The notes under the pieces: generated by a model | Database searches by the model: none | What the model was told of the DNA's origin: nothing | Seen by the model: only the letters and a program-made list of their open reading frames with translations | Source: Candidatus Latescibacterota bacterium | Lineage (GTDB): Bacteria > Latescibacterota > UBA2968 > UBA8231 | Direction of reading: 5' to 3' | Length of the DNA stretch: 64,000 nucleotides | NCBI GenBank assembly: GCA_965221775.1 | Contig: CBDCSU010000006.1 | Span: 1,152,001-1,216,000 of the forward strand | Position numbers and translations under genes: made by a program | Shown here: positions 8,562 to 64,000 of the stretch, in pieces | Numbering within the stretch: position 1 is the first letter of the stretch | How the letters are laid out: each line of letters opens with the position of its first letter

Positions 8562-8735
8562 GCGTCCTCTTGATGTTCTCCCCGAAACGAACCGTTCGCC
8601 TAGAGCCAAAGAGCACAATCATGTCCCGCTTGCCGTGCTCACGCAAATGGAGGTGCCCTCCGCGGGCTGGACAGTGTGGAATCCAATGAGGTACCGAATA
8701 CTGAGGCCCCCCCAGAATTGGCTATTGCCCATCCA

Positions 8736-11242: not shown

Positions 11243-11340
11243 TCGACAGTTTTCTCCGGCTCGGTTAGGTTTCCCGGGCCGTCGGGGCCCGGCGGCGTGA
11301 GAGGATAAGCAAGGACCACCCGAGGGAGCCAACACCGGAC

Positions 11341-12396
11341 ATGGACCGCACCGTCGACCTGCGCAGCGACACGATCACCCGTCCCACGGACGAGATGTGG
11401 GAAGCGATGCACCACGCCGACGTCGGCGACGACGTGTACGGCGAGGACCCCACCGTGCAGCGCCTCCAGGAGCTGGGGGCCGAGCTCATGGGGAAGGAGG
11501 CGGGGCTGTTCCTGCCCTCCGGCACCATGGCCAACACCGCCGCCCTGCTGGCCCACACCCGCTACGGCGACGAGATGGTCGTCGAGGAGCTGGCCCACCT
11601 CTACTGCTGGGAGGCGGGGGCCTACTCCAGCATCGCGGGGCTGGCGACGCGCCCGGTGCGCGGCGACCAGGGGATCTTCACGGCGGAGCAGTTCGAGGCC
11701 GTCCTGCGGCCGCCGAACCCCCACTTTCCCAAGACCAGCCTCCTGTGCCTGGAGAACACCCACAACAACGCCGCCGGCGCCGTGTGGAACCCCGAGGAGA
11801 CGGCCGAGGTGGCCCTCGCCGCCCGCGACCACGGCCTGCGCATCCACCTCGACGGGGCGCGCCTGTTCAACGCCGCCGTCGCCCTCGGCGTCGACGCCAA
11901 GGAGCTGACCGCCCACGTCGACTCGGTGACGTTCTGCGTCTCCAAGGGCCTGAGCGCGCCCGTGGGCTCGGTCCTGTGCGGATCCCGCGCCTTCATCGAA
12001 GAGGCCTACCGCGCCCGCAAGCGCCTCGGGGGCGCCATGCGCCAGGCCGGCATCATGGCCGCCGCCGGCATCGTCGCCCTCGAGACGATGGTCGACCGCC
12101 TCGCCGAGGACCACGAGACGGCGCGCGGCCTGGCCGAGGGCCTCAACGCCATCGAAGGCGTCACCGCGGTGCGGGCCCCGCGGCCGACGAACATCCTCAT
12201 GGTCGACGTGGGCGGCCTCGGCTGGTCGACGGCCGACCTCATCGACCGCTGGAAGGCGCTCGGCATCAAGTGCAATCCGCGCCCCCCCACCCGGGTGCGG
12301 CTGGTGACCAACCGCCACGTCACCCTCGACGACGTGGACTACGTCCTCGACACCACCCGCCAGATGCTGCGCAGCGAGGCCGTCGCCGTCCGGTGA
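11341..12396 (+). CDS. ltaE: Low-specificity L-threonine aldolase
   Basis: [53 protein letters not shown]. Confidence 0.95.
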
Positions 12397-14711
12397 CCGC
12401 CCGGGCGGCGCTTCTGGCGGCCGCTTTCGCCACCGCCTGCGACGGCTCTTCCGGGCCCTCCACCGGCGCCGCCAACCGGCTGGCCGGCGAGACCAGCCCC
12501 TACCTCCTGCTCCACGCCGGCAACCCCGTCGACTGGTACCCCTGGGGACCGGAGGCGCTGGCCCTCGCCCGGCGCGAGGACCGGCCGATCTTCCTCTCCG
12601 TGGGCTACTCCACCTGCTACTGGTGCCACGTCATGGAGCGCGAGGTGTTCTCCGACCCGGAGATCGCCGCCGTGATGAACGCGGGGTTCGTCAACATCAA
12701 GGTCGACCGCGAGGAGCGCCCCGACCTGGACGCGGTCTACATGACGGCGACGCAGATCCTGGCCCGGCACGGAGGCTGGCCCAACTCGGTCTTCCTCACC
12801 CCCGCGCTGGAGCCGTTCTTCGCCGGCACCTACTTCCCGCCGCGCGACCTCCCGGGGCGGCCCGGCTTCCCGCGGGTCCTGGAGGAGCTGCGCACCGCCT
12901 GGGACGAACGCCGGCCGGAGGTGGAGCAGGTGGCCTCGGAAGTGGCCGAGCGCATCCGCCGGGCCCAGGCGATGGCGGGGGAGCCGCGCGAGCCCGGGGC
13001 CGGCGTGGCGGCGGTGGCGGTGGAGCGGCTCAAGGCCCTCTACGACAGCGACAACGGCGGCTTCGGCGGAGCCCCCAAGTTCCCGCCCACCATGCGCCTG
13101 GAGCTGCTGCGGCAAGTCGACGCCGAGGAAGGGGACGCCGAGGCGGGGCGCATCCTCCGCCACTCCCTGGAGGCGATGGCCAGGGGCGGGATCCACGACC
13201 ACGTGGGCGGCGGCTTCCACCGCTACGCCACCGACGCCCGCTGGCGCGTGCCCCACTTCGAGAAGATGCTCTACAACCAGGCACAGATGCTGCGCCTCTA
13301 CGCCCGCGCCTACCGGTCCACCGGGGACGAGCGCTGGCGGCGGGTGGCCGAGGGGATCCTGCGCTACGTCCGCCGCGAGATGACCTCGGAGGACGGGGCC
13401 TACCTCTCGGCCCTGGACGCCGAGTCCGAGCACGTGGAGGGCAAGTACTACACGTGGACGGAGGAGGAGGTCCGCGAGGCCCTGGGGTCCGCGGCGGCCG
13501 ACACCCTGCTCGCCGTGTACGGCCTGGCCCCGGTGCCGGAGGGTGAAGGCGGCGCCCTCTACCAGCGCACCGACATCGATTCGGCGGCGGCAGCCCTCGG
13601 CGTCGGGGAGGCGGCGTTGCGCGCCTCCCTGGAGGCCTCGCTCCGGCGCCTGCACCAGGCCCGCCGGTCGCGCACCTATCCGCTGCTCGACGACAAGGTG
13701 ATCACCGCCTGGAACGGCATGATGATCGCCGCCGCCGCCGAGGCGGGAGCCGTCCTCGGCGACGAGGCCGCCATCGCCGAGGCCGAAGCGGCGGCCCGGT
13801 TCGTGCTGGAGCACCTGCGCGAGGGTGATGACCTGTACCGCGTCCATCGCGCCGGCTCCTCCCGCTACGAGGGATACCTGGAGGACCATGCCCACCTCGC
13901 CGACGGCCTGCTGGCCCTGCACCGGGCCGGCGGCCAGCCGCGGTGGCTGGCCGAGGCGCGGTCGGTGGCCGACGCCATGATCGAGCGCTTCCGCGACGCC
14001 GACGGCGGCGGCGGGTTCTTCTTCACCACCGGGGGGCGGGACCTGATCGCCCGCAGCAAGATCGCCTACGACGGCGCCCTGCCGTCGGCCAACGCCGTGG
14101 CCGCGCGGGTGCTTCTGGAGCTGGGGGAGGCGACCCGGCAGGAGCGTTACACGGAGGCGGCGGTGGAGTGCATGCGGGCCTTCGGCGGCAGCGTCGCCTC
14201 GGCGCCGGCGGGCCATGCGCACATGGTCACGGCCATGCGGGCCTGGCTGCGCTCCGGGGCCGCGGAACCCTCCCTCGCGGAGGTATCCGCCGCGCCGGCG
14301 GATTCCGTCGTCAAGGTGGCTTTCGCCCTCGACCGGGCACGGCTGGCCCCGGGGGAACCGGCCCTTCTCACGGTGAGTCTGGAAATCGCCGAGGGCTGGC
14401 ACGTCAACGCCAACCCGGCCGCGGCCGGTCTCGTGCCGACCACGGTGACGGTGAACCCCGGCAGCCTGGCCCTGCGCCAGGTCGACGTCGAGTACCCGCC
14501 CTCCCGGGCGCTGCCCTTCCCCTCCCTGGCCGAGACCCTGGAGGTCTGGGAAGGCCGGGTGGAGGTGGTGTCGCGGCTGGCGGCCGAGGAGGACGCACCG
14601 GCGGCCAACGGCGCCCTCCGCGCCGCCGTCCGCTACCAGGCCTGCGACGACGAGGTCTGCCTGCTTCCGGTGGAAGTGGTGGGCCGGGTCGCGGTGGCCA
14701 TAGGGGACTAG
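12393..14711 (+). CDS. Thioredoxin-domain protein (YyaL/DUF255, SPATA20-like) with C-terminal DsbD-N-like domain; possible lipoprotein
   Basis: [54 protein letters not shown]; C-terminal GWHVNANP...[10 protein letters not shown]; GTG overlaps the ltaE stop. Confidence 0.88.
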
Positions 14712-14774
14712 GCCCGGGCTGCGGACCCCCCGGGTTCTCCCTACCTTACCGACCTTGAACGGAGCGGATACCCC

Positions 14775-16226
14775 ATGAAAACCCTGACCCGCTGTGCCAC
14801 CCTCTGCTGGCTCGCCGCCGCGCCCGCGTGGTCCGGCTCTCCCTTCCCCTTCGAGCACCTGGACCAGCTGACCGGGCACCTGCGCTCCGGCGGCCCTCCC
14901 ATCGACGGCATCCCGGCGGTGACCAACCCGGACTTCGCGCCGGCGTCCCGGATCGAGTACGTCCGCGACACGGACCTGGTCATCGGCGTCGTCCGCGGCG
15001 GCGAGGTGAAAGCCTATCCCGAGAACCTGGGCTGGTGGCACGAGATCATCAACGACCGGATCGGCGACGGATACATCTCCGTGACCTTGTGCCCGCTCAC
15101 CGGGACGCCCCAGGTCTTCGACGCCACCGCCGGGGACGGCAGCCAGATCGAGTTCGGCGTCTCGGGGCTGCTGATCAACTCCAACCTGGTGATGTACGAC
15201 CGCCGGGACGACACCACCCTCTACCCGCAGATGATCTACACCGGCATCAACGGCGACTACAAGGGCGAGCAGCTGGAGCTGCTGCCCGCCATCGAGACGA
15301 CCTTCGAGATGTGGAAGCGCATGTACCCCGACAGCGACGTGGCCCTCTGGGGCACCGGCCTCGACCGCTATTCCGCGACCCAGCAGAGCCGCTACTCCAA
15401 GCCGGCCCTCTTCGGCGACTATCCGTACGGCGACTACCGCACCAATCACAACTTCATCATCTTCCCCCCGACCACCCACACCCCGGACCTCTCCGTCTAC
15501 CTGTCGAAGGAGATCGTCCTGGGCATCTGCCTCGGAGACGAGCTGCGGGCCTATGCCTTCCGCGACATGGGGCCCGAGGCGGTGATCAACGACGACCTCG
15601 GCGGAGAGCCTCTCCTGGTGGTCTTTCACGAAGACTCCCAGACGGCCCTGCCCTACAGCCGTGAGATCGACGGACGGACCCTCACCTTCTACCAGGTCGA
15701 CCCCTCCGGCCCGCTGCCGGAGTTCCGCGACGCGGAGACGGGCACGACCTGGGATCTCCTCGGGCGCGCCGTCGCGGGTCCCCACGAGGGCCAACAGCTC
15801 ACGCAACTGCCGGCCTACAACTCCATGTGGTTCGCCTGGAGCACCTACTGGCCGGAGAGCACGGTCTGGCAGACCGGGGACGGGATCATCGACGAGCCGG
15901 AGGACACGGCGGTCCTGGAGCCCGAGGGCGAGGCCGTCCCCCGGAGCTTCGACCTGGGCCAGAACTACCCCAACCCCTTCAACCCGGGGACGCGCATCCG
16001 CTTCGCCCTGCCGGCTGACGGCGACGCCTCCCTCACGGTCTACAACGCCTTCGGCCAGCGGGTGCGCTCCCTGGCCGACGGCCGCCACCGCGCCGGCCGC
16101 TACGTGGTCGACTGGGACGGCACCGACGAGTCCGGCCGCGCCGTGGCCAGCGGCGTCTACCACTACCGCCTGGAGATGCCCGACCGCGGCCTGTCCGAGC
16201 AGCGGACGATGACCCTCGCCCGCTGA
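14775..16226 (+). CDS. Secreted DUF3179-domain protein with C-terminal FlgD-Ig-like domain
   Basis: Signal peptide; SGGPPIDGIPA, WHEIIND, TLCPLTG, FGVSGLL...NLVMYDR, WFAW; C-terminal QNYPNPFNP...WDGTDESGRAVASGVY. Confidence 0.85.
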   Translation: MKTLTRCATLCWLAAAPAWSGSPFPFEHLDQLTGHLRSGGPPIDGIPAVTNPDFAPASRIEYVRDTDLVIGVVRGGEVKAYPENLGWWHEIINDRIGDGYISVTLCPLTGTPQVFDATAGDGSQIEFGVSGLLINSNLVMYDRRDDTTLYPQMIYTGINGDYKGEQLELLPAIETTFEMWKRMYPDSDVALWGTGLDRYSATQQSRYSKPALFGDYPYGDYRTNHNFIIFPPTTHTPDLSVYLSKEIVLGICLGDELRAYAFRDMGPEAVINDDLGGEPLLVVFHEDSQTALPYSREIDGRTLTFYQVDPSGPLPEFRDAETGTTWDLLGRAVAGPHEGQQLTQLPAYNSMWFAWSTYWPESTVWQTGDGIIDEPEDTAVLEPEGEAVPRSFDLGQNYPNPFNPGTRIRFALPADGDASLTVYNAFGQRVRSLADGRHRAGRYVVDWDGTDESGRAVASGVYHYRLEMPDRGLSEQRTMTLAR

Positions 16227-16239
16227 GGATGCGCCCGCC

Positions 16240-18597
16240 ATGGTCTCCCTGATCCACCGGTACACCCGCTGGCTGCACGGCCGCTGGCCCGCCGGCACGG
16301 TGGAGAAGCTGCCGGAGGTCGACGCCCGCTACCGCAGCAACGTCCCCGGCCTCTACATCGTCGGGGACCTGACCGGCATCCCGCTGCTGAAGTTCTCTTC
16401 CAACAGCGGCGCCCTGGCCGTCGCCGACATCGTCGACGACGAGGACTTCCAGCGGCAGCGCCAGGCCGCCGGCGGCGAAGGGGTGCTCGACGTGGTCATC
16501 GTCGGCGCCGGCGTCTCCGGGATGGCCGCGGCCCTGGCCGCGCGCGAGGCCGGACTCGATTACGAGATCCTCGAGGCCACGGAGCCCTTCTCCACCGTGG
16601 TCAACTTCCCCAAGGGCAAGCCGATCTACACCTATCCGCGGGAGATGACGCCGGCGGGGGACCTGCAGTTCGCCGCCGAGGTCAAGGAGCCGCTGGTGGC
16701 CGAGCTGCGGGAGCAGACCCTCGAGCGCGGGATCGAGCCCCGCATCGCCCGCGTGGAGCGGGTCGAGCGGGCGGGCGGCCACTTCACGGTGGTCATCCCC
16801 GACGGCGAGGACCTGCAAGCCCTCCGGGTGGTCGTCGCCATCGGCCGCTCCGGGAACTTCCGCCAGCTCGGCGTGCCCGGCGAGGACCTCGACAAGGTCT
16901 CCAACCGGCTGCACGATCCCAAGGACTACGCCGGCCAGGACGTGCTCGTCGTCGGCGGCGGCGACAGCGCCATGGAGACGGCCATCGCCGTGGCCACCGC
17001 CGGCGGACGCGTGACCCTCTCCTACCGCCGGCCCGAGTTCTCGCGGCCCAAGCCGGAGAACCTGGAACGACTGGAGGCGCTCGCCGCCGACCCGATGGCG
17101 GACGTCTCGGTGGACACGCCCACCTCCGAACGCGTGACCACCTCGAGCGGCCCCTTCCTAGAGGAGGAGCGCCGTCCCGGATCGATCGACGTCAGGATGT
17201 CGTCCAAGGTCCTCGCCATCGAGGCGGGCGAGGTGGCGCTCGCCGACGCTGGCGGCGAAGAGGTGAAGCTGCCCAACGACGCGGTCTTCACCATGATCGG
17301 CCGCGAGGCGCCGCTGGAGTTCTTCCGGCGCTCGGGGGTGCGCATCCGCGGCGAGATGGGGCCCCGCGAGTGGACCGGCTTCGGCCTGTTCATGGCCTTC
17401 TGCATGTTCCTCTACAACTGGAAGGCCGGCGGCCCTCTGACCCGCTGGTTCCAGGAGTCCGGCTGGTTCCCCTTCAACGTGCCGTCCCTGCTGGCCGCCG
17501 CCGACGCCCACGCCGCCAGCCTCTGGGGGCTGATGGCCTTCAACCTGGGCAAGCCCGGCTTCTACTACAGTCTCGCCTACTGCGCCCTCGTGGTGATCTT
17601 CGGGTACCGTCGGGTGCGCCGGCGGCCGACCCCGTACGTCAAATGGCAGACCGGGAGCCTGGCCCTCTTCCAGGTGGTGCCCCTGTTCCTGCTGCCCTAC
17701 TTCGTCCTGCCCTGGATGGGCAACGCCGGCTGGTTCGACGCCGGCTTCGGGAAGAGCTTCGCCGACGCCTTCTTCCCGGAGGTCTCCTACGACCACGGCC
17801 GGGAGTACTGGCGCGCCTTCGGCTTCGTCCTCGCCTGGCCCCTCTTCGTGTGGAACGTCTTCACCCACCAGCCGCTGACCGCGTGGCTGGTGGTCAGCCT
17901 CGTGCAGACCTTCGTCATCATCCCGGCGATCATCTACTTCTGGGGCAAGGGCGCCTACTGCGGCTGGATCTGCTCCTGCGGGGCCTTGGCCGAAACCCTC
18001 GGTGACGCCCACCGGCAAAAGATGATGCACGGGGCCCGCTGGAACCGCTGGAACCTGCTCGGCCAGGCGATCCTGCTGATCTGCCTGCTGCTGCTGGCGA
18101 CCCGCGTCGTCGGCTGGGTCTGGCCCGAGAGTGGGATCGGCGTGCAGCTGCGGCAGGTCCACGAGGGCCTGCTCTACGGCTGGAGCTTCGGCGGCGTCCC
18201 CCTCAACTACAGCTACCTCGTCGACCTGATGCTGGCCGGCGTCGTCGGCTACGGCGCCTACTTCTGGTACAGCGGCCGCGTCTGGTGCCGCTTCGCCTGC
18301 CCCCTGGCGGCGCTGATGCACGTGTACGCGCGCTTCAGCCGTTTCCGCATCCTGGCGGACAAGAAGAAGTGCATCTCCTGCAACGTCTGCACCTCCGTCT
18401 GCCACCAGGGCATCGACATCATGAACTTCGCCAACAAGGGACTGCCCATGGCCGACCCCGAGTGCGTCCGCTGCTCGGCCTGCGTCGAGTCCTGCCCCAC
18501 CGGCGTGCTGGAGTTCGGCCAGGTCGACAAGAGCGGAGAGGTGATCAAGGTCGACAGGCTGGTCGCCTCGACGACCCGGCAGCGGGAGTCGAAGTGA
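16240..18597 (+). CDS. Thioredoxin-reductase-like flavoprotein fused to a NapH/MauN-like 4Fe-4S membrane domain
   Basis: GAGVSG and GGGDSA dinucleotide-binding motifs; TM region; YCGWICSCG, WCRFACP, CISCNVCTSVC, CVRCSACVESCP. Confidence 0.85.
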   Translation: MVSLIHRYTRWLHGRWPAGTVEKLPEVDARYRSNVPGLYIVGDLTGIPLLKFSSNSGALAVADIVDDEDFQRQRQAAGGEGVLDVVIVGAGVSGMAAALAAREAGLDYEILEATEPFSTVVNFPKGKPIYTYPREMTPAGDLQFAAEVKEPLVAELREQTLERGIEPRIARVERVERAGGHFTVVIPDGEDLQALRVVVAIGRSGNFRQLGVPGEDLDKVSNRLHDPKDYAGQDVLVVGGGDSAMETAIAVATAGGRVTLSYRRPEFSRPKPENLERLEALAADPMADVSVDTPTSERVTTSSGPFLEEERRPGSIDVRMSSKVLAIEAGEVALADAGGEEVKLPNDAVFTMIGREAPLEFFRRSGVRIRGEMGPREWTGFGLFMAFCMFLYNWKAGGPLTRWFQESGWFPFNVPSLLAAADAHAASLWGLMAFNLGKPGFYYSLAYCALVVIFGYRRVRRRPTPYVKWQTGSLALFQVVPLFLLPYFVLPWMGNAGWFDAGFGKSFADAFFPEVSYDHGREYWRAFGFVLAWPLFVWNVFTHQPLTAWLVVSLVQTFVIIPAIIYFWGKGAYCGWICSCGALAETLGDAHRQKMMHGARWNRWNLLGQAILLICLLLLATRVVGWVWPESGIGVQLRQVHEGLLYGWSFGGVPLNYSYLVDLMLAGVVGYGAYFWYSGRVWCRFACPLAALMHVYARFSRFRILADKKKCISCNVCTSVCHQGIDIMNFANKGLPMADPECVRCSACVESCPTGVLEFGQVDKSGEVIKVDRLVASTTRQRESK

Positions 18598-54035: not shown

Positions 54036-54548
54036 ATGCTGGAGATCTTCAAGGTCCCCGTGGAACCCCTCACCCCCGAGGCCTTCGCGCCCTTCGGAAG
54101 CGTCATCCGAACCTGCGACGAGACCCGGCCCGAGGTGCGGGTCGGCGGCCTCACGGAGAACCACTACACGGTGACGGCGGAGGTCTCCGACCCGCCGCCG
54201 GAGAAGCTCTCCCTGTCGGAGGGCCGGCTGCGCGCCCACTTCGCCTGCCACGACGACGCCGGCCAGTCCTTCTACCCGACGCGGCACTGCCCCACCGTCT
54301 TCCTCGTGGCCCCGCCCGCCCCGAGCCTGAACCCCGAGGACCTGCGCGCCTTCCACTCCGACGGCCGCCTGGGCGTCTGCCTGGGGCTGGAGGTGTGGCA
54401 CACCATGCCCATCTGCCTGGAGGGGACCGAGGTCTACCACACGGCCCGCGGCGACCAGGACTACCAGACCCACTCCGTGGAGGTCGACTTCGACGAGGAG
54501 CGGGGGGTGGTGATCGATGTGGACGTGGAGGGGTTTGCGGGGGGTTGA
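54036..54548 (+). CDS. Ureidoglycolate lyase (AllA)-like cupin protein
   Basis: VEPLTPEAFAPFGSVI N-terminus, H...QSF, VWH. Confidence 0.75.
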   Translation: MLEIFKVPVEPLTPEAFAPFGSVIRTCDETRPEVRVGGLTENHYTVTAEVSDPPPEKLSLSEGRLRAHFACHDDAGQSFYPTRHCPTVFLVAPPAPSLNPEDLRAFHSDGRLGVCLGLEVWHTMPICLEGTEVYHTARGDQDYQTHSVEVDFDEERGVVIDVDVEGFAGG

Positions 54549-54595
54549 GGGGGCGAGTTCCTCTGCTGCGCCATGTCATTGCATACATTCATGGG

Positions 54596-54803
54596 ATGGC
54601 CAGCATCACAATCCACCTCGGCGATGACCTGAAGCGGCGACTGCGAGCCCAGGCGGCCGAGCACGGGCGATCCTTGGAAGAGAAGCGCGGACGATCCTGC
54701 GCGCCGCGCTCGCCGAGCCCGCGCCCCCGGCCGATCTGGCCCGTGCCATACGGGACGCTTCGAGCCCCTGGGGGGCGTGGAACTGGACATCCCACCGCGG
54801 TGA
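54596..54803 (+). pseudogene. FitA-like ribbon-helix-helix antitoxin with two single-base frameshifts
   Basis: MASITIHLGDDLKRRLRAQAAEHGRSLEE / ARTILRAALAEPAPPADLARAIR / RFEPLGGVELDIPPR* in three successive frames; no PIN toxin follows. Confidence 0.75.
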
Positions 54804-54822
54804 TCAAGCCGCCTCAGGCGAT

Positions 54823-55092
54823 ATGCAAGAGGTCTCGGCCAGAGAAGCCAGGAAACGATTCGGGCAATTGCTCGATGCCGCCCAGGGCGGACCTGTATGC
54901 ATCACCAGGAGAGGCCGCGCGGCCGCCGTCATGATGTCCATGGAGCAGTACCAACGGCTGCAAGGCGCCGCATGGGCGCGCTTGACGGAGACGATGGACC
55001 GCTTGGGAGCCGAGGCGGTCGGCCGTGGATTGACCGGGGCTGGGCTCGATGCGCTCTTGGATCCGCAAGGTGAGACGACCCTTGAGAGCTGA
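54823..55092 (+). CDS. Phd/YefM family antitoxin (orphan)
   Basis: VSAREARKRFGQLLDAAQGGPVCITRRGRAAAVMMSMEQY. Confidence 0.88.
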   Translation: MQEVSAREARKRFGQLLDAAQGGPVCITRRGRAAAVMMSMEQYQRLQGAAWARLTETMDRLGAEAVGRGLTGAGLDALLDPQGETTLES

Positions 55093-55353
55093 TCGGCGTG
55101 CTGGTGGCCGAGGTCGCCCACAACACGCCCTACGAGCGCCCAGTGGAGGACACCCTGTGGACCGCTCGCTGCCTGGCGCAGGTCACCGCGTGTCCGAGGA
55201 TCGCATCCAATCTGGCGGACCATCGGGCTGCTGCCGTATCGACCGATGCCTTTTCACTAGACAAGGTGCGCAACATCGTGGGCCTGCATCTCCACTCCCC
55301 AGCATGATGCCGCCTGTGTCTGCAATAGCGCTTCAGAGCGCGGCGGTCCCCAC

Positions 55354-58300
55354 ATGATCATCCCGCTCGAACCCAACCTCCAAGGCTTGGCAGCACGACG
55401 TTTCCATAGCTTTGCTCGGCAAGTTCTCAACCGGCAGGGGGCCGGCGAACACCATCGAATCGCCGCGCTCGTGGACGCGGAGACGGTGCATGCGCCCGAA
55501 CGCCGCGAGCTCAAGGGTCAATGCGACGAATACACCGCCTGCGTGCGGGTGCTTGGAGACCTCGCGCAACTGCGCTGGAAGCTGGTGGAGAGCGGGCACG
55601 GCCTGGAGCTCCACTCGCCACGCCTAGTGGACGCTCGGACCTCCGGGCCCTGCGAGTCTCACCGGCGAAAGGAAGCGATCCGCAACGAGCTGCGTCCGCG
55701 CCTCCTGCAACAGTTCGCGGACCCGCACGTCCGGCAGTTCATCCGGCGGATGGAGCGCCCAAGAGCCACGTCGAGACATACGTCCATCAACGCCCTGATC
55801 GCGGACGGCGCCGAATTGCAGCAGCGTCTGCGCGAGGCCCGGGACCATCCGCTCGACGATCCTGCACGCAGCAAGGCGCTGCGCGGCGCCATCCGACCCT
55901 ATCTCCAACTCGTCGAGCCGGGGGTGCGCGACGAGCACACCGCGATACCGCTGCGGGACATCTGGCGCTACTTCCGTTTCACTTGGTCAATCCCGCAAAC
56001 CCCGATACCCGGTCGCAGCTTACTCTATCTGGTCAGGGACGCGGCCCACGAGTACCATGGCGTGATCGGCATCGCCGCACTCAGCAACTGCGCCGTGCAA
56101 ATGGTCCCGCGCGACCGCGCCATCGGCTGGAGTGCCAAGGGACTTGCTGACGCCCTGACGACGCTCTTCTCCTCCGCTGAGCAGAGGGGGGAGCGCGAGG
56201 CTAGCGACCCCTCCCTCGGCATGCAAGGCCCCTATCGGTGGCTGTTGCCGCTGTTCCCGGTCGGCGTCGACCCTTCGCAAGAGACCAAACGGACGGCACT
56301 GGAACGTCTCTTCGCTTGGCTTCTTCAGGGGATATCCACGGCGATCGGGGAGATCGAACATCAAGGGCTCGCGACGCCGGAAGACCTCAAGGCACCGACC
56401 CAGGAGATGATCGACCGCCTTCGCCATCTTAGCAGGGAATTCGCGGCAAAGCGCCAGGAGGCGCTGGCCCGAAGCCGGGAAGACGGCGACATCGTCGGCC
56501 TAGCCCCGGGCGCCGCGACCGCGCCCGTCGACGATGATGTCCTCAATCTCGAGGCCAAGCATGCGTCCAATGCGCCGGTCAACAATTCGCGGCGCATGCT
56601 GGTGCGCAAGAAGCGGGCCTTCGAGCTGGCGCGCCTGCTCGATGCCGCTAGAGTCCTGGCCGCTAGCCGCCAAACCCTGACCGACCCCACCACCGCCTTC
56701 GCCACCTTGGAGCGGGAAGAAGTACGCACCGCCATCAACACGGCCATGAGCGCGACAAAAAGCCGGCGCATCGGGACCAACCTTCTGGAAATCACCACAT
56801 GTGGCGCGGTGGCCCCCTACAACCGCATGCTGGGCGGCAAGCTGGTTGCGCTGCTCCTGCTCAGCCCACAGGTGGCGGCGGACAACAACCGCCGCTACGG
56901 GAACGAACCTGCGATCATCCGCTCGCAACTCAAGAATACCCGGGTCGTCCCCGACAATACCCTTGTCTGGCTCGGCACGACCAGCCTTTTTTCACACGGC
57001 AGCAGCCAGTACGAGCGTCTGCGCCTTCCGTCCGGCACCATCGCCCCTGACCAGGAGGAGATCCGCTACCGCTATCTCGGCGAAACGACCGGCTACGGCA
57101 CGGTGCAGTTCGCGGACGACACCGTGCGCGCACTCGATACCGTGATGCGCCGCCGACGCGGCTTCCGGGACGTCAACAGCGTGTTCGGCGAGGGCGCGAG
57201 TCCCAGGCTGCGTAAGCTGAGGTCGGGATTGGACGCGATCGGCTTCAACGCCAGCCTCACCATGCTCCACCACCAAGGCAGGCGCATCTACGGCGTGCCC
57301 CTGTTCCCGACCGCCGCCGCCTATCTGTGTGGCCTCGACCCGGACGTTCCGGACTACATCCGTGCGCCCGAATCCTACGAGGACGCCAGCGAACGCATCG
57401 CCGAGTTCTGGCGCCGACGCTGGCTTGCCCGAAGACTCGAACACGAAGACAGCTGGACGGCTCTTGGCGAGACCGGACAAAGGCTTCTGAGCGCCACCAT
57501 TCCAGAACCGCCCGAGCCGACGGCGTCCCGGGTGGCCGGAGACGGAGAGGACATCGACGACGGCGACGGCGGGAACGACGGTCCGCCAGCGGATGACTTG
57601 GCCGAACTCAACTTCTGGCGCACGCTCGCACGCGGCGGGCCTAATGCCATCTCAGAGGGTTTGTCCGACGACGAGTATGCGCGGTTACACCTTACGACGC
57701 CGCTCGAAGATCATCTTCTCAAGCAGGCACGACAAGGCCGCTCGATCGTACTCACCGGCAATGCCGGCGACGGAAAGACCCATCTCGCCCGCACCCTGCG
57801 GCGCCGCCTCGGAAGCAATTCCGAGCGTTTCGTATTCGAATTCGATGCCACCGCCACTATGACCAGCCGGGATGGCGTCGCACCGATCATAGAAAGCTGG
57901 CGATGGGCGAGCAACAACGGCAAGAGCATGGTGCTCGCGATCAACCAGTACCCGCTGCACATGCTACGCCAAGAACTGCGGAGCGCCCTGCCGGCCGTCT
58001 CCGACGCCATCGACCAGCAGTGGCGGGCGCGATTGTATACGGAGCCTTCGGACGATTCGTCGGACCCAAGCGACCTCCTGCTCGTGGACCTGTCTCTCCG
58101 CAATCCTCTCTCGCAACACTTTGCGAATCGTGTACTGAACAAGATGCTGGAGAGCCCGGCCGTCAGGCGATATGCCGCGAGCCATTCCGATCCGAACTTC
58201 TCGCTCAATTTCCGGTGCCTATCGCATCCCGAGGTGCAGACGCGCCTGTTCCATCTGTTCGCCAGGGTTGTCTCGTCCGGTGGACGCGCGACCATCCGCG

Positions 58301-59265
58301 AACTCTGGATCCTGTGCGCTCGATTGCTCTTCGGTGCCTCTTTGGATCCCGGCTTGCCCGGCTCTCACCAAGCTTGGTATTCCGACCGTCTGTTCCAACG
58401 CGACGCGCGCTTTCCCCTGACTGGTGCGCTGTGCCGCGTTTCCGACCCCGCACAGGTGAGCCACCCCCAGATCGACCGGCGACTGGAGGATCCGGAAGGA
58501 ACCCGGGGCGTCGACTGGCTCATCGACGGCGAGCCCCCGGACCTCCCAGCCTCTCCCGTCGCCACTATGGCCACCGCCGCCCACAACCGCGACCGATACC
58601 AGGCACGGTTCGCGGCCCGAAAACGCCGCTTCTACTTCGAACACACCGACGGCGGTGAAGACCGCGTCTTCGCGCTCGATGACAGCTCGCATGCCAGTTT
58701 CCACCGAATGCTGGGGACGGACACGCATGACGACGAGTACCGGCGCGTCCTGATCGAGGCGATCAATCGCTGCTACTTCCCGCATGAATTCGACGGCATG
58801 CGCGACAAGCTGTGCCTGTGGATCGGCCACCGCCTGGACGAGCAGCCGACCAAGAGCTTCGTTGCCAACGAGTGCCTTCCGCTGGGACGTCTCGCCCTCA
58901 GGCGTCCGGTGCCGCCGGCCTCGCTGCGCGACACCCTGGAATACGTTCCCGACCACCTCCTCTTGTGTCTCGCGAGCCCGGACGGCAGCGTTTCCCGGGA
59001 TCTCTCGCTCCGCATCGACCCGGCACTCTTCGACACCCTCTGGTCCATCCGGGGGGGGCTACCCCGACACCTGATCGATCCCGCCGAACTCAACCGACTC
59101 GACACATTCATCGACCGCCTGCGTCGCTCGTCACCGCCGCCGGAACCCCTGCCGGAGTTCCTGATCTACAACGCCGAGCATGTCGCCTCGAGCGTCGTCA
59201 AGCTCTCCGCCGATCGCACGCGATACGACCGTGTCGACCGGCTCCCTCCGGAAGGACGGACATGA
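55354..59265 (+). CDS. Fusion: N-terminal DruA/DUF4338-like domain plus C-terminal DndF(DptF)-like P-loop ATPase
   Basis: WRYFRFTWS...PGRSLLYLVRD...VIGIAAL, CGAVAPYNRMLGGKLV, TTSLF..GSSQY, YLGETTGYG (DUF4338-like); acidic linker; LHL..PLE, VLTGNAGDGKTHL, FDAT, VLAIN (DndF-like). Confidence 0.75.
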   Translation: MIIPLEPNLQGLAARRFHSFARQVLNRQGAGEHHRIAALVDAETVHAPERRELKGQCDEYTACVRVLGDLAQLRWKLVESGHGLELHSPRLVDARTSGPCESHRRKEAIRNELRPRLLQQFADPHVRQFIRRMERPRATSRHTSINALIADGAELQQRLREARDHPLDDPARSKALRGAIRPYLQLVEPGVRDEHTAIPLRDIWRYFRFTWSIPQTPIPGRSLLYLVRDAAHEYHGVIGIAALSNCAVQMVPRDRAIGWSAKGLADALTTLFSSAEQRGEREASDPSLGMQGPYRWLLPLFPVGVDPSQETKRTALERLFAWLLQGISTAIGEIEHQGLATPEDLKAPTQEMIDRLRHLSREFAAKRQEALARSREDGDIVGLAPGAATAPVDDDVLNLEAKHASNAPVNNSRRMLVRKKRAFELARLLDAARVLAASRQTLTDPTTAFATLEREEVRTAINTAMSATKSRRIGTNLLEITTCGAVAPYNRMLGGKLVALLLLSPQVAADNNRRYGNEPAIIRSQLKNTRVVPDNTLVWLGTTSLFSHGSSQYERLRLPSGTIAPDQEEIRYRYLGETTGYGTVQFADDTVRALDTVMRRRRGFRDVNSVFGEGASPRLRKLRSGLDAIGFNASLTMLHHQGRRIYGVPLFPTAAAYLCGLDPDVPDYIRAPESYEDASERIAEFWRRRWLARRLEHEDSWTALGETGQRLLSATIPEPPEPTASRVAGDGEDIDDGDGGNDGPPADDLAELNFWRTLARGGPNAISEGLSDDEYARLHLTTPLEDHLLKQARQGRSIVLTGNAGDGKTHLARTLRRRLGSNSERFVFEFDATATMTSRDGVAPIIESWRWASNNGKSMVLAINQYPLHMLRQELRSALPAVSDAIDQQWRARLYTEPSDDSSDPSDLLLVDLSLRNPLSQHFANRVLNKMLESPAVRRYAASHSDPNFSLNFRCLSHPEVQTRLFHLFARVVSSGGRATIRELWILCARLLFGASLDPGLPGSHQAWYSDRLFQRDARFPLTGALCRVSDPAQVSHPQIDRRLEDPEGTRGVDWLIDGEPPDLPASPVATMATAAHNRDRYQARFAARKRRFYFEHTDGGEDRVFALDDSSHASFHRMLGTDTHDDEYRRVLIEAINRCYFPHEFDGMRDKLCLWIGHRLDEQPTKSFVANECLPLGRLALRRPVPPASLRDTLEYVPDHLLLCLASPDGSVSRDLSLRIDPALFDTLWSIRGGLPRHLIDPAELNRLDTFIDRLRRSSPPPEPLPEFLIYNAEHVASSVVKLSADRTRYDRVDRLPPEGRT

Positions 59266-60593
59266 CCAAACGGCAGGCGCACTTCCAAGCTTTCGGCTAC
59301 GAACCGCTGCGCATGAAGCCCGTGCATTTCGCCTCCGGCTTTTTCATCGCCCTGAAAGGGCAGGTCTACGCCAACGAGCTCCTGAACAAGGTCGCGGTGA
59401 CCCAAGCGAACAAGGGATTGCAGCACGGCTATACCGCAGAAGATCTCCTCGCCAAGCTGAAAGCCGACCAGCTGGTCTCGTCGACGATGACGCAGGCAGA
59501 TGTCGAACTGCTTCGCGTTCAGGTCAATGGCGTCGTCAATAATGATGCCGCAATGTATCCCGCGTTTCACCCCTACCGACCGAAGGGAAACGACTACACG
59601 TTTATCTCGCCTCGCGTGCTGACCACTGCCAACCGGACCGACGGCTTCGCCGGGCTCTTCGTCTTTGCCGTCCTCGACGAGACCGCTTCCGGAAAGGCCA
59701 TCCTTGATGCCGGGCGCGAGCTTGCAGCGGAACCCCAAGGCGCGCTGGAGCAGCTCGTCGCACCGCTACTCGAGGACGAGGATCCGGAGACGCGGGAGCT
59801 TCTGGAGAGCTACGAGCGCGATTTCGGCGTGCTCGATCCGGCGCGCATCGCGTCAATCGCCGCCGACATGCAGGCGGAAACCGACGCTCTGCAACGCCTG
59901 TGCGCCAACATGATGGGCTACAGCCACTACAAGAAAATCCGATACTACGTTCTCGGGCTCCTGGCTTGGCTGATGAGTTACATGCTCAAGACGGCCTCCC
60001 CCGAACAGTCGAAGACACCTCTGATGTTCTTTGACTTCATGGGCGAGAGGGACGGGCGTATCCGCACGCAGAGCCAAACGTGCTACGCACGTCTGCGGGA
60101 AACCGTGCGCCGGTCCTACAGCGAATTCGCTGCCTCCGGCCGGTTCGATCCCGACCCAATCGCCAAGGGGCTATTCAGCCCGAAAGAGCGGCCGGACGAA
60201 ACCAATTTCAAGTTCTTGGAAGAACACTTCAGCAATCTCGCCTTGCGCATGGGCTATATCCAGCCCCGTGCCTCGCGGGTGCGCCTAAAGCACTTCGAGC
60301 TTCAGCCCGACACGCTGCGGGTCCTGATGCTGAGCATTCTCGACGTCGATGCGGGGAACGCGATCACGCTCGACGACGTGTGCAAACGCCTTGGCCACAC
60401 CTGGAGCGTCGTCGTGGGGGCGCTTGGAGTCGATCTCGAGTCCCTGCGGGAGCAGGACTATTTCGGGTTCGACGAAGAAGACCTCCGCCACAACACGGCC
60501 GCATTCTCGCAGCATCTCAAGAGTCTCAGCATGGCATTCGAACCCTCCGATGGTCTGGTGCTTTGCTCCACGGATATCGGGGAAGTTCTTTGA
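59262..60593 (+). CDS. DndG(DptG)-like protein, 443 aa
   Basis: ATGA overlap and GGAAGGA RBS; position and size match DndG; C-terminal GYIQPR...LQPDTLRVLM...ITLDDVCKRL...SDG pattern; true start 59262, not 58812. Confidence 0.6.
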   Translation: MTKRQAHFQAFGYEPLRMKPVHFASGFFIALKGQVYANELLNKVAVTQANKGLQHGYTAEDLLAKLKADQLVSSTMTQADVELLRVQVNGVVNNDAAMYPAFHPYRPKGNDYTFISPRVLTTANRTDGFAGLFVFAVLDETASGKAILDAGRELAAEPQGALEQLVAPLLEDEDPETRELLESYERDFGVLDPARIASIAADMQAETDALQRLCANMMGYSHYKKIRYYVLGLLAWLMSYMLKTASPEQSKTPLMFFDFMGERDGRIRTQSQTCYARLRETVRRSYSEFAASGRFDPDPIAKGLFSPKERPDETNFKFLEEHFSNLALRMGYIQPRASRVRLKHFELQPDTLRVLMLSILDVDAGNAITLDDVCKRLGHTWSVVVGALGVDLESLREQDYFGFDEEDLRHNTAAFSQHLKSLSMAFEPSDGLVLCSTDIGEVL

Positions 60594-63500
60594 ACCGCGA
60601 CGGCTATATCGCGCAGGCCGCCGCGCTGGAAGTCGACCGGGTCATCCGGGAAGCCGGACATTTCTTCTGCCCCGAGCTTCCGGCCATGGACGTCCAGCGC
60701 TTCCTCTCCGCCCTAGCGGAACTCACTGACGACGTGGCCGGGGTGTCCCTCGCACTCGTCGGTTACGAGGTGTCGGAGACCGACCTGCGCGATCGGCTGA
60801 ACGCCATGGCACTGCCGGTCAGGCACGTGACGACTGATCTTCATGTAGCAGCGAAGTGGCGCAACGAGCCGGACAAGCATACGAACATCATCGCGCTCGC
60901 GACTGGCCGCTACCCCGGCGTCAGCACACTCGCGCACTTCCCGCAGGGCAACGCCCGCACCCTGGCGACGCGACTGCTCACATGGGCCCGGACCGAGCAG
61001 GCAGGACTCGCGTCCACCCCCGCGCAACGACGGCTCCTCGAAGCGCTCGCCGAGACTCGCGCCCTGTCCCCGCTGGTGTCCCTGAACGGCGTCGCCGGGT
61101 TTCTCGCGACTTGGAGCGCGAGCCAAGCGGAGGACGCGCTCGATGCGCCCCGCGGTGCGTTACCCCGTCTCGGCATTCTACCAGACCGGAAACTGTTCGG
61201 AGCCGTCGACGAGATCCCTCAGCGCCTGTCGCAGAATTACCGTTTGACCCAGAACTTGGCCAAGATGCCCGGACAGACGCTCGAGGCGATTCGCCGCCGG
61301 ATCCGCAGAAGCCGGTCCCCACATCGCGCCAGACGCCTGGAGATTCTCGAAAGGGTGGAGGCAATCCGCCACACGGGCGGCTTCGATACCTTCAGCGCGC
61401 TGGACTACGAGGACGCACGGGGAATCCTCTCACCTCCGAAGGACGATCGGGCACCCGGCCCACCCGCTGACCCCGACCAGGAGCAGAGAGACAACGGCTT
61501 GCCACGCGACACGCTCGACGAGAGGGATGTCTCGAGAGAGGGTGGCGAAGCGCTTCTCGACGGGGATGACAAGACGCTACAGGACATCACTGAGCGCGTC
61601 GGCCAGGCTCTCCACGATGCGATGGAGGAGGACGAAGACGAGGCCAGCGGCGAGTACGCCGTCAATGGTGACGAACGCCGGTTCGAACTCCAGATCGACC
61701 GCGAACTTCTGACCTGGGTTCGCTTCTTCTGTGGGGCCGATGCTTGGGGTGGGTGCTTCGAAACGCGAGACCCGTCCCTCGAGACCGCACTGCGCCACTA
61801 CGGCCAATGCGAGCCGATCCAGATCCGGCCGACAGAAGCAACGATTGCCCACATCGACGAGATGCACGATCTGCGCTCGGCCATCAAGCTCATGCAGGAC
61901 GCGTTGCACCGCGCCGGGATCACCTCGGAAGACTTCTGCGGGCTCTGGGACCGCATCGTGGCTGCGCGCCGGGTGTTGCTGGAGGATCTCGAATTCCTGC
62001 TCTTCCAGCCAACATTGGCGATCGCCGGCAAGCCGAAGCTCCGGGCGGCAGCGGCCGAACTCGTCCAAGCTTGGGAGCGCCTCTACGACAGGTTGGCCCA
62101 CCATCACAAGGACATGGAGCGAATTGACCGGGCCTGGACTCACATGCTCCTGGAAGCCGTCGCCTCGCTCGACGTCGTCCAGATCAAGACCAGGCTGGAT
62201 GCCCGACGATCGTCCTGGAAAGCGATCCTGCTGCCGACCCATCCCCTGCATCTGTGGCGCTACGAGAGAATGGCCACGCTTGCCCGCGGACTGGGACTCG
62301 AGGGACTAGACCGCATAGCAGTGCTTGAGCAGCTCGAACAGCCCGAGCACTATCTCGGCGTGCTCTGGCTCACGAGCTTCCCCGAGGGCAGAGGCGGAAG
62401 CCAGCCACTGCCCGTCGCGCGTGACTATCGCGGGCTGGGGGTCTTCGAGAACCTGCGAAATGCCTATAGCGGAAGTGACGGGGTCGAGGCGCTGCAACGC
62501 TGCGTTCGCCAGTTCGCACAAATCTACGTAAACCATACACAACCGCTGCGGCTTGCCTTGGTCAATCCGCCGAACGCAAGCGAGATGCTGTTGACCCTGC
62601 TCAAGGACAGTCGCGGGCGCCTCGCTCCCCCAGTGCCCTTGCTCGTCGACATCTATGCGACGCAGAACCATGAGGCCCGCATCGTCGGCGCGCGACGGTT
62701 CTCCACCGAGGACCGCGACCAGATCGAAGAACACATCGGCAACGGACGACTGCGGCTGCGCGTCCATGACCGCGTGACATCGCTGGAGGAACGGCTTCGC
62801 AGCTTCCAGGAGAAACCCGTCCACATCATCGCCGTGTTCGACGAAGCCACAACCAGCATGCGCCAGCAGCCCGGCGGCATCAATCTGCTACCCATGAGTC
62901 CGTTCGCAACGCGTCGGCGGATCGACTATCAGGCGATCAGCGGACAAGTTGAACTCCTGCCGTCACTGGAGGAGTCGGTGTTCCGGGCCTTTTACGACAT
63001 GCAGGGCAAACTGGATGCTCGGTCCGGTCAGACACCGCAAGCGACCGCCGACGCCCAGCAGATGCGCGAGCATATCGAGTCTGTCCTCACGGGCACCTGC
63101 CCGGGCGCGTTCTGGTTCTTCTTCGCCGATCGGGCGCTGCCCTCGCCCAGCGGTGCGCGGGTGGCGCGCATCCTGGAGCGACGCGACGGGCGGCGTCGCT
63201 CAGTCTGCTACGACGCGAGTTACGAGCGCTTGGCGCTGCTGCTCCGACAGCCACTGGACCAGTTCAATCTCCGCTTCTCCCCGCAACAACTCAAGGAGCT
63301 TATGGAAGAAGGCGTTATTCTGCTGGGCGATGGGCTGATCGATCTCTTCGGGGCCGACGGGCAGCCCGACCCAGCACGGGTCCTTGGCTTTGCCGGCATG
63401 CTGATCGCCGCTCGCGACTACAAGGCACGCCACCCCCAAGCGCTCGTCGTGTCCGTCGATACCCGTCTCGCACGCTTGTGGTTGCGCCTTTCCGATTCCG

Positions 63501-64000
63501 GCGAGCGCTGCGACCTCCTAGGTCTGCGCCATGAGGACGGCACGATGGTCGTCGAGGCAATCGAGGTGAAGACCGTCGGGACCGGCAGTGACGCCGTCGC
63601 ACAGGCGGACATCGAGAAGGCAACCGGTCAACTCGCATCCACGCTCGCCGCCATCCAGTCGGGCTTGGAGGAGAACGAGGAATCCTCGCCGCTTGCCGCC
63701 CCGCGCCAGGAAATGCTCAAGGAACTATTCGTGTCGGGCTGCCAGGCGCTGAAAGCCGGTCGCGAGGACCGCGAGCGTTGGGTGGAGTGGCTGCGGGTGC
63801 TGTTTCGCGAGATCGAGGGCGCCACCGAGACCCAGCTGCGCGGTACGGTCTACGCCGTTGAACTCAGCCACAACGGTCCGCCCGAGGAGGCAATCCTCGA
63901 CGCCACCTCTCATGCCATCGTCCTGCGCCGTGTCAGGGAAGCGCGGATCCAGCAACTGCTCTCCCCGGAAGTGCCTCCCCCGCAGGGCGACGACGACCCG
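60590..64000 (+). CDS. DndH(DptH)-like large protein with PD-(D/E)xK nuclease motif; 3'-truncated by the window; missing from the ORF track
   Basis: Manual translation from TTG 60590 (TTGA overlap) is open for 1137 codons to the window end; AKWRN, LGILPD...RLSQN, LLPTHPL, RCDLLGL...IEVK...KATGQL. Confidence 0.75.
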   Translation, partial: MNRDGYIAQAAALEVDRVIREAGHFFCPELPAMDVQRFLSALAELTDDVAGVSLALVGYEVSETDLRDRLNAMALPVRHVTTDLHVAAKWRNEPDKHTNIIALATGRYPGVSTLAHFPQGNARTLATRLLTWARTEQAGLASTPAQRRLLEALAETRALSPLVSLNGVAGFLATWSASQAEDALDAPRGALPRLGILPDRKLFGAVDEIPQRLSQNYRLTQNLAKMPGQTLEAIRRRIRRSRSPHRARRLEILERVEAIRHTGGFDTFSALDYEDARGILSPPKDDRAPGPPADPDQEQRDNGLPRDTLDERDVSREGGEALLDGDDKTLQDITERVGQALHDAMEEDEDEASGEYAVNGDERRFELQIDRELLTWVRFFCGADAWGGCFETRDPSLETALRHYGQCEPIQIRPTEATIAHIDEMHDLRSAIKLMQDALHRAGITSEDFCGLWDRIVAARRVLLEDLEFLLFQPTLAIAGKPKLRAAAAELVQAWERLYDRLAHHHKDMERIDRAWTHMLLEAVASLDVVQIKTRLDARRSSWKAILLPTHPLHLWRYERMATLARGLGLEGLDRIAVLEQLEQPEHYLGVLWLTSFPEGRGGSQPLPVARDYRGLGVFENLRNAYSGSDGVEALQRCVRQFAQIYVNHTQPLRLALVNPPNASEMLLTLLKDSRGRLAPPVPLLVDIYATQNHEARIVGARRFSTEDRDQIEEHIGNGRLRLRVHDRVTSLEERLRSFQEKPVHIIAVFDEATTSMRQQPGGINLLPMSPFATRRRIDYQAISGQVELLPSLEESVFRAFYDMQGKLDARSGQTPQATADAQQMREHIESVLTGTCPGAFWFFFADRALPSPSGARVARILERRDGRRRSVCYDASYERLALLLRQPLDQFNLRFSPQQLKELMEEGVILLGDGLIDLFGADGQPDPARVLGFAGMLIAARDYKARHPQALVVSVDTRLARLWLRLSDSGERCDLLGLRHEDGTMVVEAIEVKTVGTGSDAVAQADIEKATGQLASTLAAIQSGLEENEESSPLAAPRQEMLKELFVSGCQALKAGREDRERWVEWLRVLFREIEGATETQLRGTVYAVELSHNGPPEEAILDATSHAIVLRRVREARIQQLLSPEVPPPQGDDDP

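Follow-up and report, generated by a model that had tools for sequence, protein, structure and literature searches.

In a window of 64,000 nucleotides (nt) from a Candidatus Latescibacterota bacterium (GenBank assembly GCA_965221775.1, contig CBDCSU010000006.1, positions 1,152,001 to 1,216,000 of the forward strand; coordinates below are those of this window), the fusion gene at 55354-59265 on the plus strand joins a DruA (DUF4338) module to a DndF/SspF-like ATPase and heads an operon of the DndFGH type (DruA~F, G, H), an anti-phage restriction module whose genes overlap tightly. The predicted core of DruA very probably has a GNAT fold, which a helical insertion of about 210 amino acids (aa) interrupts between strands beta3 and beta4. 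The long form of DruA keeps a near-constant partnership with F-G-H across phyla; this partnership and the survey of phosphorothioate-writing genes around it and in the same genomes are the new elements of this work. The fusion and its GNAT assignment are not new, having been in print since 2024 (PMC10853773).

The fusion gene is an uninterrupted reading frame of 1303 aa, and its parts and the two genes behind it are arranged as follows.

55354-55878, plus strand: DruA N-terminal domain, aa 1-175 (AlphaFold2 model; pLDDT, the predicted score in the local distance difference test, mostly >90)
55879-56133, plus strand: N-terminal half of the predicted GNAT core, aa 176-260 (AlphaFold2 model, VIA-align, conservation)
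56134-56769, plus strand: all-helical insertion of about 210 aa between the predicted GNAT strands beta3 and beta4, aa 261-472 (DSSP on the AlphaFold2 model)
56770-57348, plus strand: C-terminal half of the predicted GNAT core, aa 473-665 (AlphaFold2 models, VIA-align, column counts)
57349-57543, plus strand: C-terminal helices of the DruA module, aa 666-730 (AlphaFold2 model, alignment)
57544-59265, plus strand: acidic linker, then DndF/SspF-like P-loop NTPase and C-terminal region, aa 731-1303 (PADLOC, Walker conservation)
59262-60593, plus strand: G-like gene, 443 aa (sequence; phmmer homologues at the equivalent position in related loci)
60590-64000, plus strand: DndH-like gene, running past the window end (PADLOC, DndH C-terminal region)

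Residues 1-730 belong to the DruA/DUF4338 family (Pfam PF14236, 101.6 bits against a cut-off of 27, E 5.7e-29; PADLOC DruA, PDLC00001, 2.1e-125), so the DUF4338 call made in an initial annotation from the letters of this DNA was right. Around the P-loop, aa 771-994 (approximate limits) gave local PADLOC matches to SspF (7.6e-9) and DndF (1.2e-4), SspF models being the best-scoring names, and the F part scored below the NCBIfam DptF cut-off (TIGR03238, 16.4 bits against 50). The Walker A motif TGNAGDGKTH lies at aa 801-810 (GNAGDGKT at nt 57757-57780) and a Walker-B-like segment ends in Asn864 (nt 57943-57945); T801, G802, G805, D806, G807, K808, T809 and N864 are invariant in 35/35 long homologues. 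PMC10853773 describes the DndF core in the same terms, with Walker A intact and Asn in Walker B. The G-like product had no match in Pfam, PADLOC or NCBIfam, while in H the C-terminal residues (about 350) match DndH (8.6e-71) and the N-terminus matches SspH weakly, both in PADLOC; the full-length gene in the genome encodes 1563 aa and ends at window coordinate 65281. The fusion gene and the G-like gene share 4 bp (ATGA), in which the stop of the former and the ATG of the latter overlap, and the putative TTG start of the DndH-like gene at 60590 overlaps the G-like stop by 4 bp. From these family matches, the operon is a divergent DndFGH-type module whose F carries DruA, an assignment that we regard as practically certain; the SspF/DndF and DndH matches and the 4-bp overlaps bear out the earlier proposal of a fusion with an ATPase heading an F-G-H operon.

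Conservation within the DruA module was followed across 85 aligned sequences (mean column identity 28%), comprising 84 stand-alone forms and the window's domain and picked by length from the best 150 matches of the protein search described below, leaving out long fusions and fragments. The motifs that the initial annotation had picked out are all present at the places it gave: PGRSLLYLVRD at aa 219 (nt 56008-56040), VIGIAAL (nt 56062-56082), GAVAPYNRMLGGKLV at aa 484 (nt 56803-56847), TTSLF (nt 56977-56991), GSSQY (nt 56998-57012) and YLGETTGYG (nt 57073-57099). Given the invariant residues across the 85 homologues, they are not chance. P219, G220, R221, R228, G484, P488, Y489, G495, K496, T542, Q552 and Y553 are invariant (85/85), as are W204, R208, W211 and R253; invariance extends to R421 in the helical insertion, to F611, G614 and R620, and to W686 and W690 in the C-terminal helices, the module having 24 invariant residues in total. 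The N-terminal domain adds the near-invariant M1, D69, L70, W75, R110, F129 and E134, and the N-terminal GNAT half carries the motifs WRYFRxTW, PGR, LVRD and VIGIAAL.

AlphaFold2, run on the same alignment, gave a model with pLDDT 91.4 and a predicted template modelling score of 0.92. Its residues 1-175 form helices plus one beta-hairpin (76-80, 83-87) and may be a winged helix; this part had no fold match, the VIA-align matches covering mainly residues 177-664. The N-terminal GNAT half consists of strand 182-186, helix 200-208 and strands 222-229 and 237-244. Residues 261-472 or thereabouts are all helices by DSSP, between strands 237-244 and 477-485, and the long helical insertion that had been noticed between the first two motifs is therefore real in the model. 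The C-terminal half runs from beta4 (477-485) through helices 489-501, 505-515 and 521-527 to beta5 (539-543), followed by short strands, beta6 (573-577), helices 588-602, 617-628 and 633-636, the last strand (644-649) and the C-terminal helices; residues 588-636 thus make up a second helical insertion ahead of the last strand, with F611-G-E-G614 and R620. Modelled alone, this half reached pLDDT 88.5.

When the model was compared by VIA-align with 48,161 representative chains, considering the 50 best rows per query, acetyl/acyltransferase, GNAT, FemA or Mom titles made up 47/50 listed rows, and the remaining three were an unnamed M. jannaschii domain, entry 4cry and a designed filament. Likewise, 47/50 listed rows had acyltransferase titles when the C-terminal half was modelled by itself. 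The split GNAT core to which these models point, with high confidence, is in line with the assignment made in a single line of PMC10853773 (Rakesh, Aravind and Krishnan 2024, Nucleic Acids Research), which lists a 'GNAT domain (annotated as DUF4338 in Pfam)' as one of the domains fused N-terminally to DndF. The DruA profile gave nothing below E 4 against PDB chain sequences, ESM Atlas searches with aa 473-665 and aa 1-175 gave no usable match, and Pfam hmmscan of aa 175-665 at E <= 10 returned DruA only and no Pfam GNAT family, the HMMER filters dropping most weak matches.

In GNATs, the canonical acyl-coenzyme A (acyl-CoA) pyrophosphate motif at beta4-alpha3 is Q/R-x-x-G-x-G/A, and the end of beta4, the loop and helix that follow and the Tyr after beta5 provide the acyl-donor pyrophosphate, acyl-carbonyl and general-acid Tyr sites. 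At the place of this motif, DruA has P488-Y-N-R491-M-L-G494-G495-K496, in which the distance from the Pro is as expected and G494/G495 are retained, whereas position 491 is variable in the family (P-Y-N-x-L-L-G-G-K) and the last position is an invariant Lys. Column counts are high along the whole region: C483 (83/85), G484 (85/85) and A485 (77/85) at the end of beta4; P488 and Y489 (both 85/85), N490 (53/85), G494 (73/85), G495 and K496 (both 85/85) in the loop and helix after it; T542 (85/85), T543 (77/85), S544 (79/85) and L545 (82/85) in beta5, and then Q552 and Y553 (both 85/85) and R555 (83/85). The GNAT domain of DruA is probably catalytically active, since the positions at which GNATs bind the acyl donor are taken by invariant residues. 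The near-invariant C483 beside the donor site could carry an acyl-enzyme intermediate, and the invariant Arg and Trp residues (W204, R208, W211, R221, R228, R253, R421, R620, W686 and W690) would suit a nucleic-acid substrate.

The partnership with F-G-H was established from relatives at two scales. A sequence search of 1.84 billion representative proteins gave 1412 clusters at E <= 1e-3, and among the best 150 of these, 86 matches were 600-780 aa long, 34 at least 1100 aa, 18 shorter than 600 aa and 12 between 781 and 1099 aa; a Walker A motif lies beyond residue 650 in 34/34 of the matches of at least 1100 aa. When one genome from each of 185,579 species was scanned, 530 stretches with relatives came up, of which the best 79 distinct loci were analysed; phmmer searches using the F part, G and H of the window served to score the three genes. 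Among these 79, the closest relatives come from metagenome-assembled genomes (MAGs) of Vicinamibacterales and Bryobacterales, and the phyla represented include Acidobacteriota, Verrucomicrobiota, Bacillota, Chloroflexota and Pseudomonadota; haloarchaeal plasmids carry relatives too, and the RefSeq label on plasmid relatives is 'Druantia anti-phage system protein DruA'. The long DruA form stands with F-G-H, as a fusion or an adjacent gene, in 68/79 loci from several phyla. DruA is fused to F in 53/79 loci (48 with H, the other five having at most 4.4 kb of downstream sequence), and an F-like match is a separate open reading frame (ORF) in 15/79 (10 with H; L009, one of the 15, is a fusion that the contig end truncates). 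No F was found in 11/79, of which six end within 2 kb of the match and three look degraded, the others being L036 and L073. All-against-all clustering of the 1798 ORFs from these loci gave one merged DruA/F/G/H cluster in 79 loci and an SfsA-like family in 30, the other families being antisense shadow ORFs or present in at most 8 loci. The same four parts therefore travel together in many phyla, fused or adjacent, without neighbouring genes for phosphorothioate (PT) writing.

Some loci depart from this layout in ways that are informative about partners. At L036:10001-14401, DruA is fused directly to an FtsK/HerA ATPase (1467 aa); a GHKL-type ATPase gene lies just upstream of DruA in a Capsulimonadaceae MAG (L073:8001-11908), and a Roseivivax plasmid (L085:9740-13494) has an 'ATP-binding protein' gene and then DruA, in the same GHKL-like layout. 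The partners are thus all DNA-handling ATPases (F-G-H in 68/79 loci, FtsK/HerA in L036, GHKL in L073 and the Roseivivax plasmid), which leans towards a nucleic-acid substrate. In 30 mostly Bacillota loci, an SfsA-like protein of about 236 aa (OB domain plus restriction-endonuclease-like domain) directly follows H as a fifth gene, e.g., at L033:14629-15312, and in L056 (L056:8554-9288) the order is F-G-H-SfsA-DruA. Cut-down DruA-F ORFs or fragmented G/H give a degraded look to L016, L025, L026, L029, L030 and L053; in L025 and L053, the fusion ORF is shortened, yet G and H match well.

Mom is, to our knowledge, the only GNAT known to modify DNA. According to the accessible text of PMC13219725, Mom of phage Mu (PDB 8BV8) transfers glycine from Gly-tRNA(Gly) onto adenine N6 in double-stranded DNA, and its essential elements are a helix-turn-helix (HTH)-like insertion at about residues 175-209 and R111, S124 and R151 (plus D149). 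In VIA-align, Mom was nominally the top match of the whole DruA model, with the longest alignment among the 50 listed rows; with the C-terminal half, it gave the second-longest alignment (103 residues), the longest (129) belonging to a tandem-GNAT chain of 340 residues. By our own reading of the Mu sequence (numbering offset +10), the HTH-like insertion of Mom lies before the last strand, and DruA residues 588-636 take the same place; by eye, the two proteins also have in common a P-x-N where beta4 meets alpha3 and a Tyr behind beta5. Mom as the nominal top fold match and the shared place of the insertion lean, as far as models allow, towards a nucleic-acid substrate. The GNAT part of the earlier Mom/GNAT-type assignment was supported by AlphaFold2 and VIA-align, and kinship of DruA with Mom is unproven, a lead and not a result.

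DruA-like structures extend to viruses. In a Foldseek search of BFVD with the C-terminal half, A0A3G4ZXG3 of Faunusvirus (E 1.7e-6) and A0A5K0UAJ3 of Yasminevirus (E 2.8e-6) were found, both uncharacterised proteins, with probability 1.00 and 18-19% identity, and Mom was absent among the rows shown; DruA-like domains therefore exist in Nucleocytoviricota. Six Synechococcus phages with DruA-like structures are reported in the accessible part of the Phold preprint.

We propose that the GNAT domain of DruA would act on nucleic acid handled by the F-G-H DNA motor, a substrate class to which we give somewhat less than an even chance. The reaction would be acyl or aminoacyl transfer onto DNA, a Mom-type chemistry, and the resulting mark may serve a PT-independent module as its own self mark or license F-G-H. 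As a whole, the reading of DruA as an active, nucleic-acid-directed acyl/aminoacyl transferase that gives F-G-H its own mark or licence is tentative, and a DNA self-mark written by DruA is held with the same reserve or slightly more. The viral DruA-like proteins and the general lack of ties to PT described below count in favor of this reading. A broader version is unlikely, namely, that DruA is the bacterial counterpart of Mom, placing (amino)acyl groups on DNA bases as a self mark that is neither methyl nor PT and that DndFGH-like, HerA/FtsK, GHKL and Druantia type I machineries would read, the viral DruA-like proteins being copies of the writer used for counter-defence.

Several results weigh against a DNA-marking transferase related to Mom. 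Foldseek against the PDB, with the whole model and with the C-terminal half, returned noise only (E >= 0.1; transporters, CheA) and no GNAT, although we draw no conclusion on the fold from this noise. The Pfam Mom profile PF25680 did not match DruA at E <= 10, though it recovers Mu Mom (2.1e-75), and hhalign of the DruA alignment (85 sequences) against a Mom alignment (the 52 more divergent sequences out of 120 listed matches) gave 1.4% probability, out of register; sub-alignments of the two GNAT halves gave 0.8-1.9%, also out of register. The parallel that had been drawn between TSLF...Y...LGxTxG and the C-terminal block of Mom can be traced by eye on the Mu Mom sequence but was not upheld by hhalign, which gives no in-register match. 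Mom R111, S124, D149 and R151 have no evident counterparts in the DruA strands, as judged by eye, and tblastn with the GNAT core found no relative in 50,697 phage records. The published reading of the fused domain is that of a co-effector, because the other DndF N-terminal domains (HEPN, NERD, kinases) are effectors. Finally, the genome itself has PT-writing genes: SspA (1.7e-120), SspB (2.3e-109), SspC (8.5e-153) and SspD (1.3e-90) stand in a row on contig C5 of the same assembly (C5:1362000-1381999, locus positions 7558-16356, minus strand), so that PT coupling in trans may occur in this genome, and SspB or DndC was found above the cut-off in 15/47 module-bearing genomes.

This last point bears on the idea that DruA replaces the PT mark and on its opposite, in which the module reads the PT mark written by SspABCD in trans and the GNAT is an accessory outside self-marking. 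The 47 genomes, drawn from the 79 loci, have F and/or H and enough flank; SspB was above the cut-off in 11/47, DndC in 7/47 and neither in 32/47, where many are MAGs whose completeness is not reported, so that absence is not proven. In four complete chromosomes, the PT genes are >490 kb away from the module, and no PT-writing gene family recurs beside it in the neighbour clustering of the 79 loci. With 32/47 genomes showing neither marker and the PT genes distant in the complete chromosomes, the module is not generally tied to PT, which favors the replacement idea in part, while the SspABCD genes of this genome speak against it. In the window itself (PADLOC on 32 ORFs; Pfam) and in the 10 kb after H there is no Dnd/Ssp modification gene, and DndC (TIGR03183) was not found in the assembly (completeness 96.8%). 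Dependence on PT is consistent with the C5 genes, with the SspF names of the best PADLOC matches of F and with SspB in 4/6 searched genomes that have 68-71% DruA identity (G001, G003, G005 and G006). Against it, besides the 32/47 genomes and the distances in complete chromosomes, the Ssp cluster is adjoined by its own candidate partners, a 420-aa ORF without a family and a DndB-family gene, followed by an AbiGi-like protein, and C5 may not belong to the same cell because the assembly has 7.75% contamination. We consider dependence on PT improbable, and it is compatible with the other readings. An apparent DndC adjoining the module in one Verrucomicrobiales genome was dropped, as the two contigs differ in length (170,004 versus 174,793).

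Two further explanations would give the domain a role other than marking. As a co-effector or toxin, the GNAT would be silenced by the F sensor ATPase until infection or blocked restriction and would then acylate a host protein or aminoacyl-tRNA and arrest growth; the accessible text of PMC10853773 places GNAT(DUF4338) beside HEPN, NERD and S/T/Y kinases among the variable DndF N-terminal domains and proposes suicidal co-effector action on self molecules, 'proteins (S/T/Y kinase or GNAT)'. Fusion to F in 53/79 loci suits this explanation, as does the existence of GNAT toxins that acetylate charged tRNA (mentioned in the accessible text of PMC13219725). However, with its two extra domains, 24 invariant residues and a length of about 730 aa, the module far exceeds the core of tRNA-acetylating toxins (about 160 aa), DruA is also found as a gene of its own and together with other DNA ATPases, and clustering of the 79 loci gave F/G/H and the SfsA-like protein (30 loci) only, with no recurring antitoxin-like partner; a co-effector is thus somewhat unlikely in our judgment. 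Less probable still is a non-catalytic sensor or adaptor, whose GNAT fold would bind acyl-CoA, a nucleotide, a phage component or modified phage DNA and switch F-G-H via the helical insertion. Detection of modified phage DNA had been offered as an alternative in the initial annotation, the published model has F as a sensing hub (accessible text of PMC10853773), and the classical Q/R-x-x-G-x-G/A motif is partly kept (R491-M-L-G-G-K496, with 491 unconserved). Yet residues of catalytic type are invariant at 28% mean identity, which is more typical of an enzyme, even if binding sites can be conserved too. A nucleic-acid-directed transferase stays our preferred, tentative reading.

Beyond the module, the window has a GC content of 0.70-0.74 (about 0.73 before the drop) and of 0.63-0.67 from about 54 kb onward, the lower value fitting expectation for an acquired island. 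Upstream lie housekeeping genes for RecO, a class II aminoacyl-tRNA synthetase, trigger factor, ClpX, SerA, PurA, a PEP mutase family protein and citrate synthase. A Phd/YefM-family antitoxin gene (54823-55092, plus strand; NCBIfam TIGR01552, 1.8e-12) is upstream of the module; it is context at the start of the lower-GC island, outside the module. Small genes at the island edge (54395-55357) include a FitA-like ribbon-helix-helix match. The start ATG of the fusion gene overlaps by 4 bp the stop of a 102-aa ORF (55049-55357), the frame of which is not clearly favored by the profile of GC at third codon positions. The 10 kb past H hold an NsnB-like AAA_21 ATPase, a 174-aa ORF, an amidohydrolase and a family B polymerase; the ATPase (AAA_21/AAA_15/DUF3696; PADLOC 1.3e-56) comes directly after H (L002:10704-12574, beyond the window) and, with the 174-aa ORF, which has no family match and also lies behind H, probably forms a second small defence system. 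The ORF at 8736-10769 (minus strand), which lies in a patch of lower GC (0.66) about 45 kb from the DruA-F module, includes a type II DNA methyltransferase (methyltransferase part about 8775-9570; PADLOC MTase_II, 1.7e-99), and the adjoining 408-aa ORF (7392-8618, minus strand), without a family match, could be its endonuclease.

Druantia type I has DruA as its signature protein; the function of DruA is unpublished in the literature searched, which lay outside subscription journals and contained no published function, mechanism or experiment on DruA, no link of DruA to Mom and none of Druantia to GNAT. The finding also touches the question of how DndFGH modules without PT writers discriminate self from non-self. 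If true, the DNA-mark reading would extend host epigenetic self-marking by a new chemical class, and the co-effector reading would give back-up immunity a new toxin type. With DruA as a modelled GNAT, Mom as the nominal best match and the F-G-H partnership, both questions become testable at the bench.

Among known systems, the nearest is GNAT(DUF4338)-DndF of PMC10853773, which has the same DUF4338/GNAT domain N-terminal to a DndF core in an operon with G and H and, as far as its accessible text goes, no structural difference. The architecture being already catalogued, though never studied at the bench, the window locus is a further member and not a discovery; the accessible text gives the fusion one sentence, with no fold search against Mom and nothing on the separate-gene form. 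The same text describes DndFGH as often stand-alone or decoupled from PT writing. Canonical PT-dependent DndFGH/SspFGH systems share the three-gene F-G-H layout and the DndH-type C-terminal region of H, their complex being described as a DNA nickase and translocase in the accessible text of PMC11662687; unlike them, the present locus has an F below the DptF cut-off, a G without a family match, DruA on F and no adjacent dnd or ssp writer genes.

Curated profiles (Pfam PF14236, PADLOC DruA) place this DruA in the same family as that of Druantia type I. Doron et al. are said to have described in 2018 that Druantia type I comprises druABCDE, including the DruE helicase, and that type II has a methylase. 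Here the partners are F (fused), a G-like and a DndH-like protein and not DruB-E (no search with DruB-E profiles was made in the loci); since the neighbors are F, G and H, the idea of a classical type I Druantia gene was rejected. BRC systems, HerA/FtsK-centred and BREX-related, likewise tie a GNAT to a HerA/FtsK-type defence machine, and a GNAT/TGT is proposed there to modify host DNA as a self/non-self signal; their components PglZ, BrxC-like, STAND and DUF4007 set them apart (PMC12839542). Compared with Mom, finally, DruA has an extra N-terminal domain of 175 aa and an insertion of 210 aa, and it is a bacterial defence gene, whereas Mom is a phage counter-defence gene.

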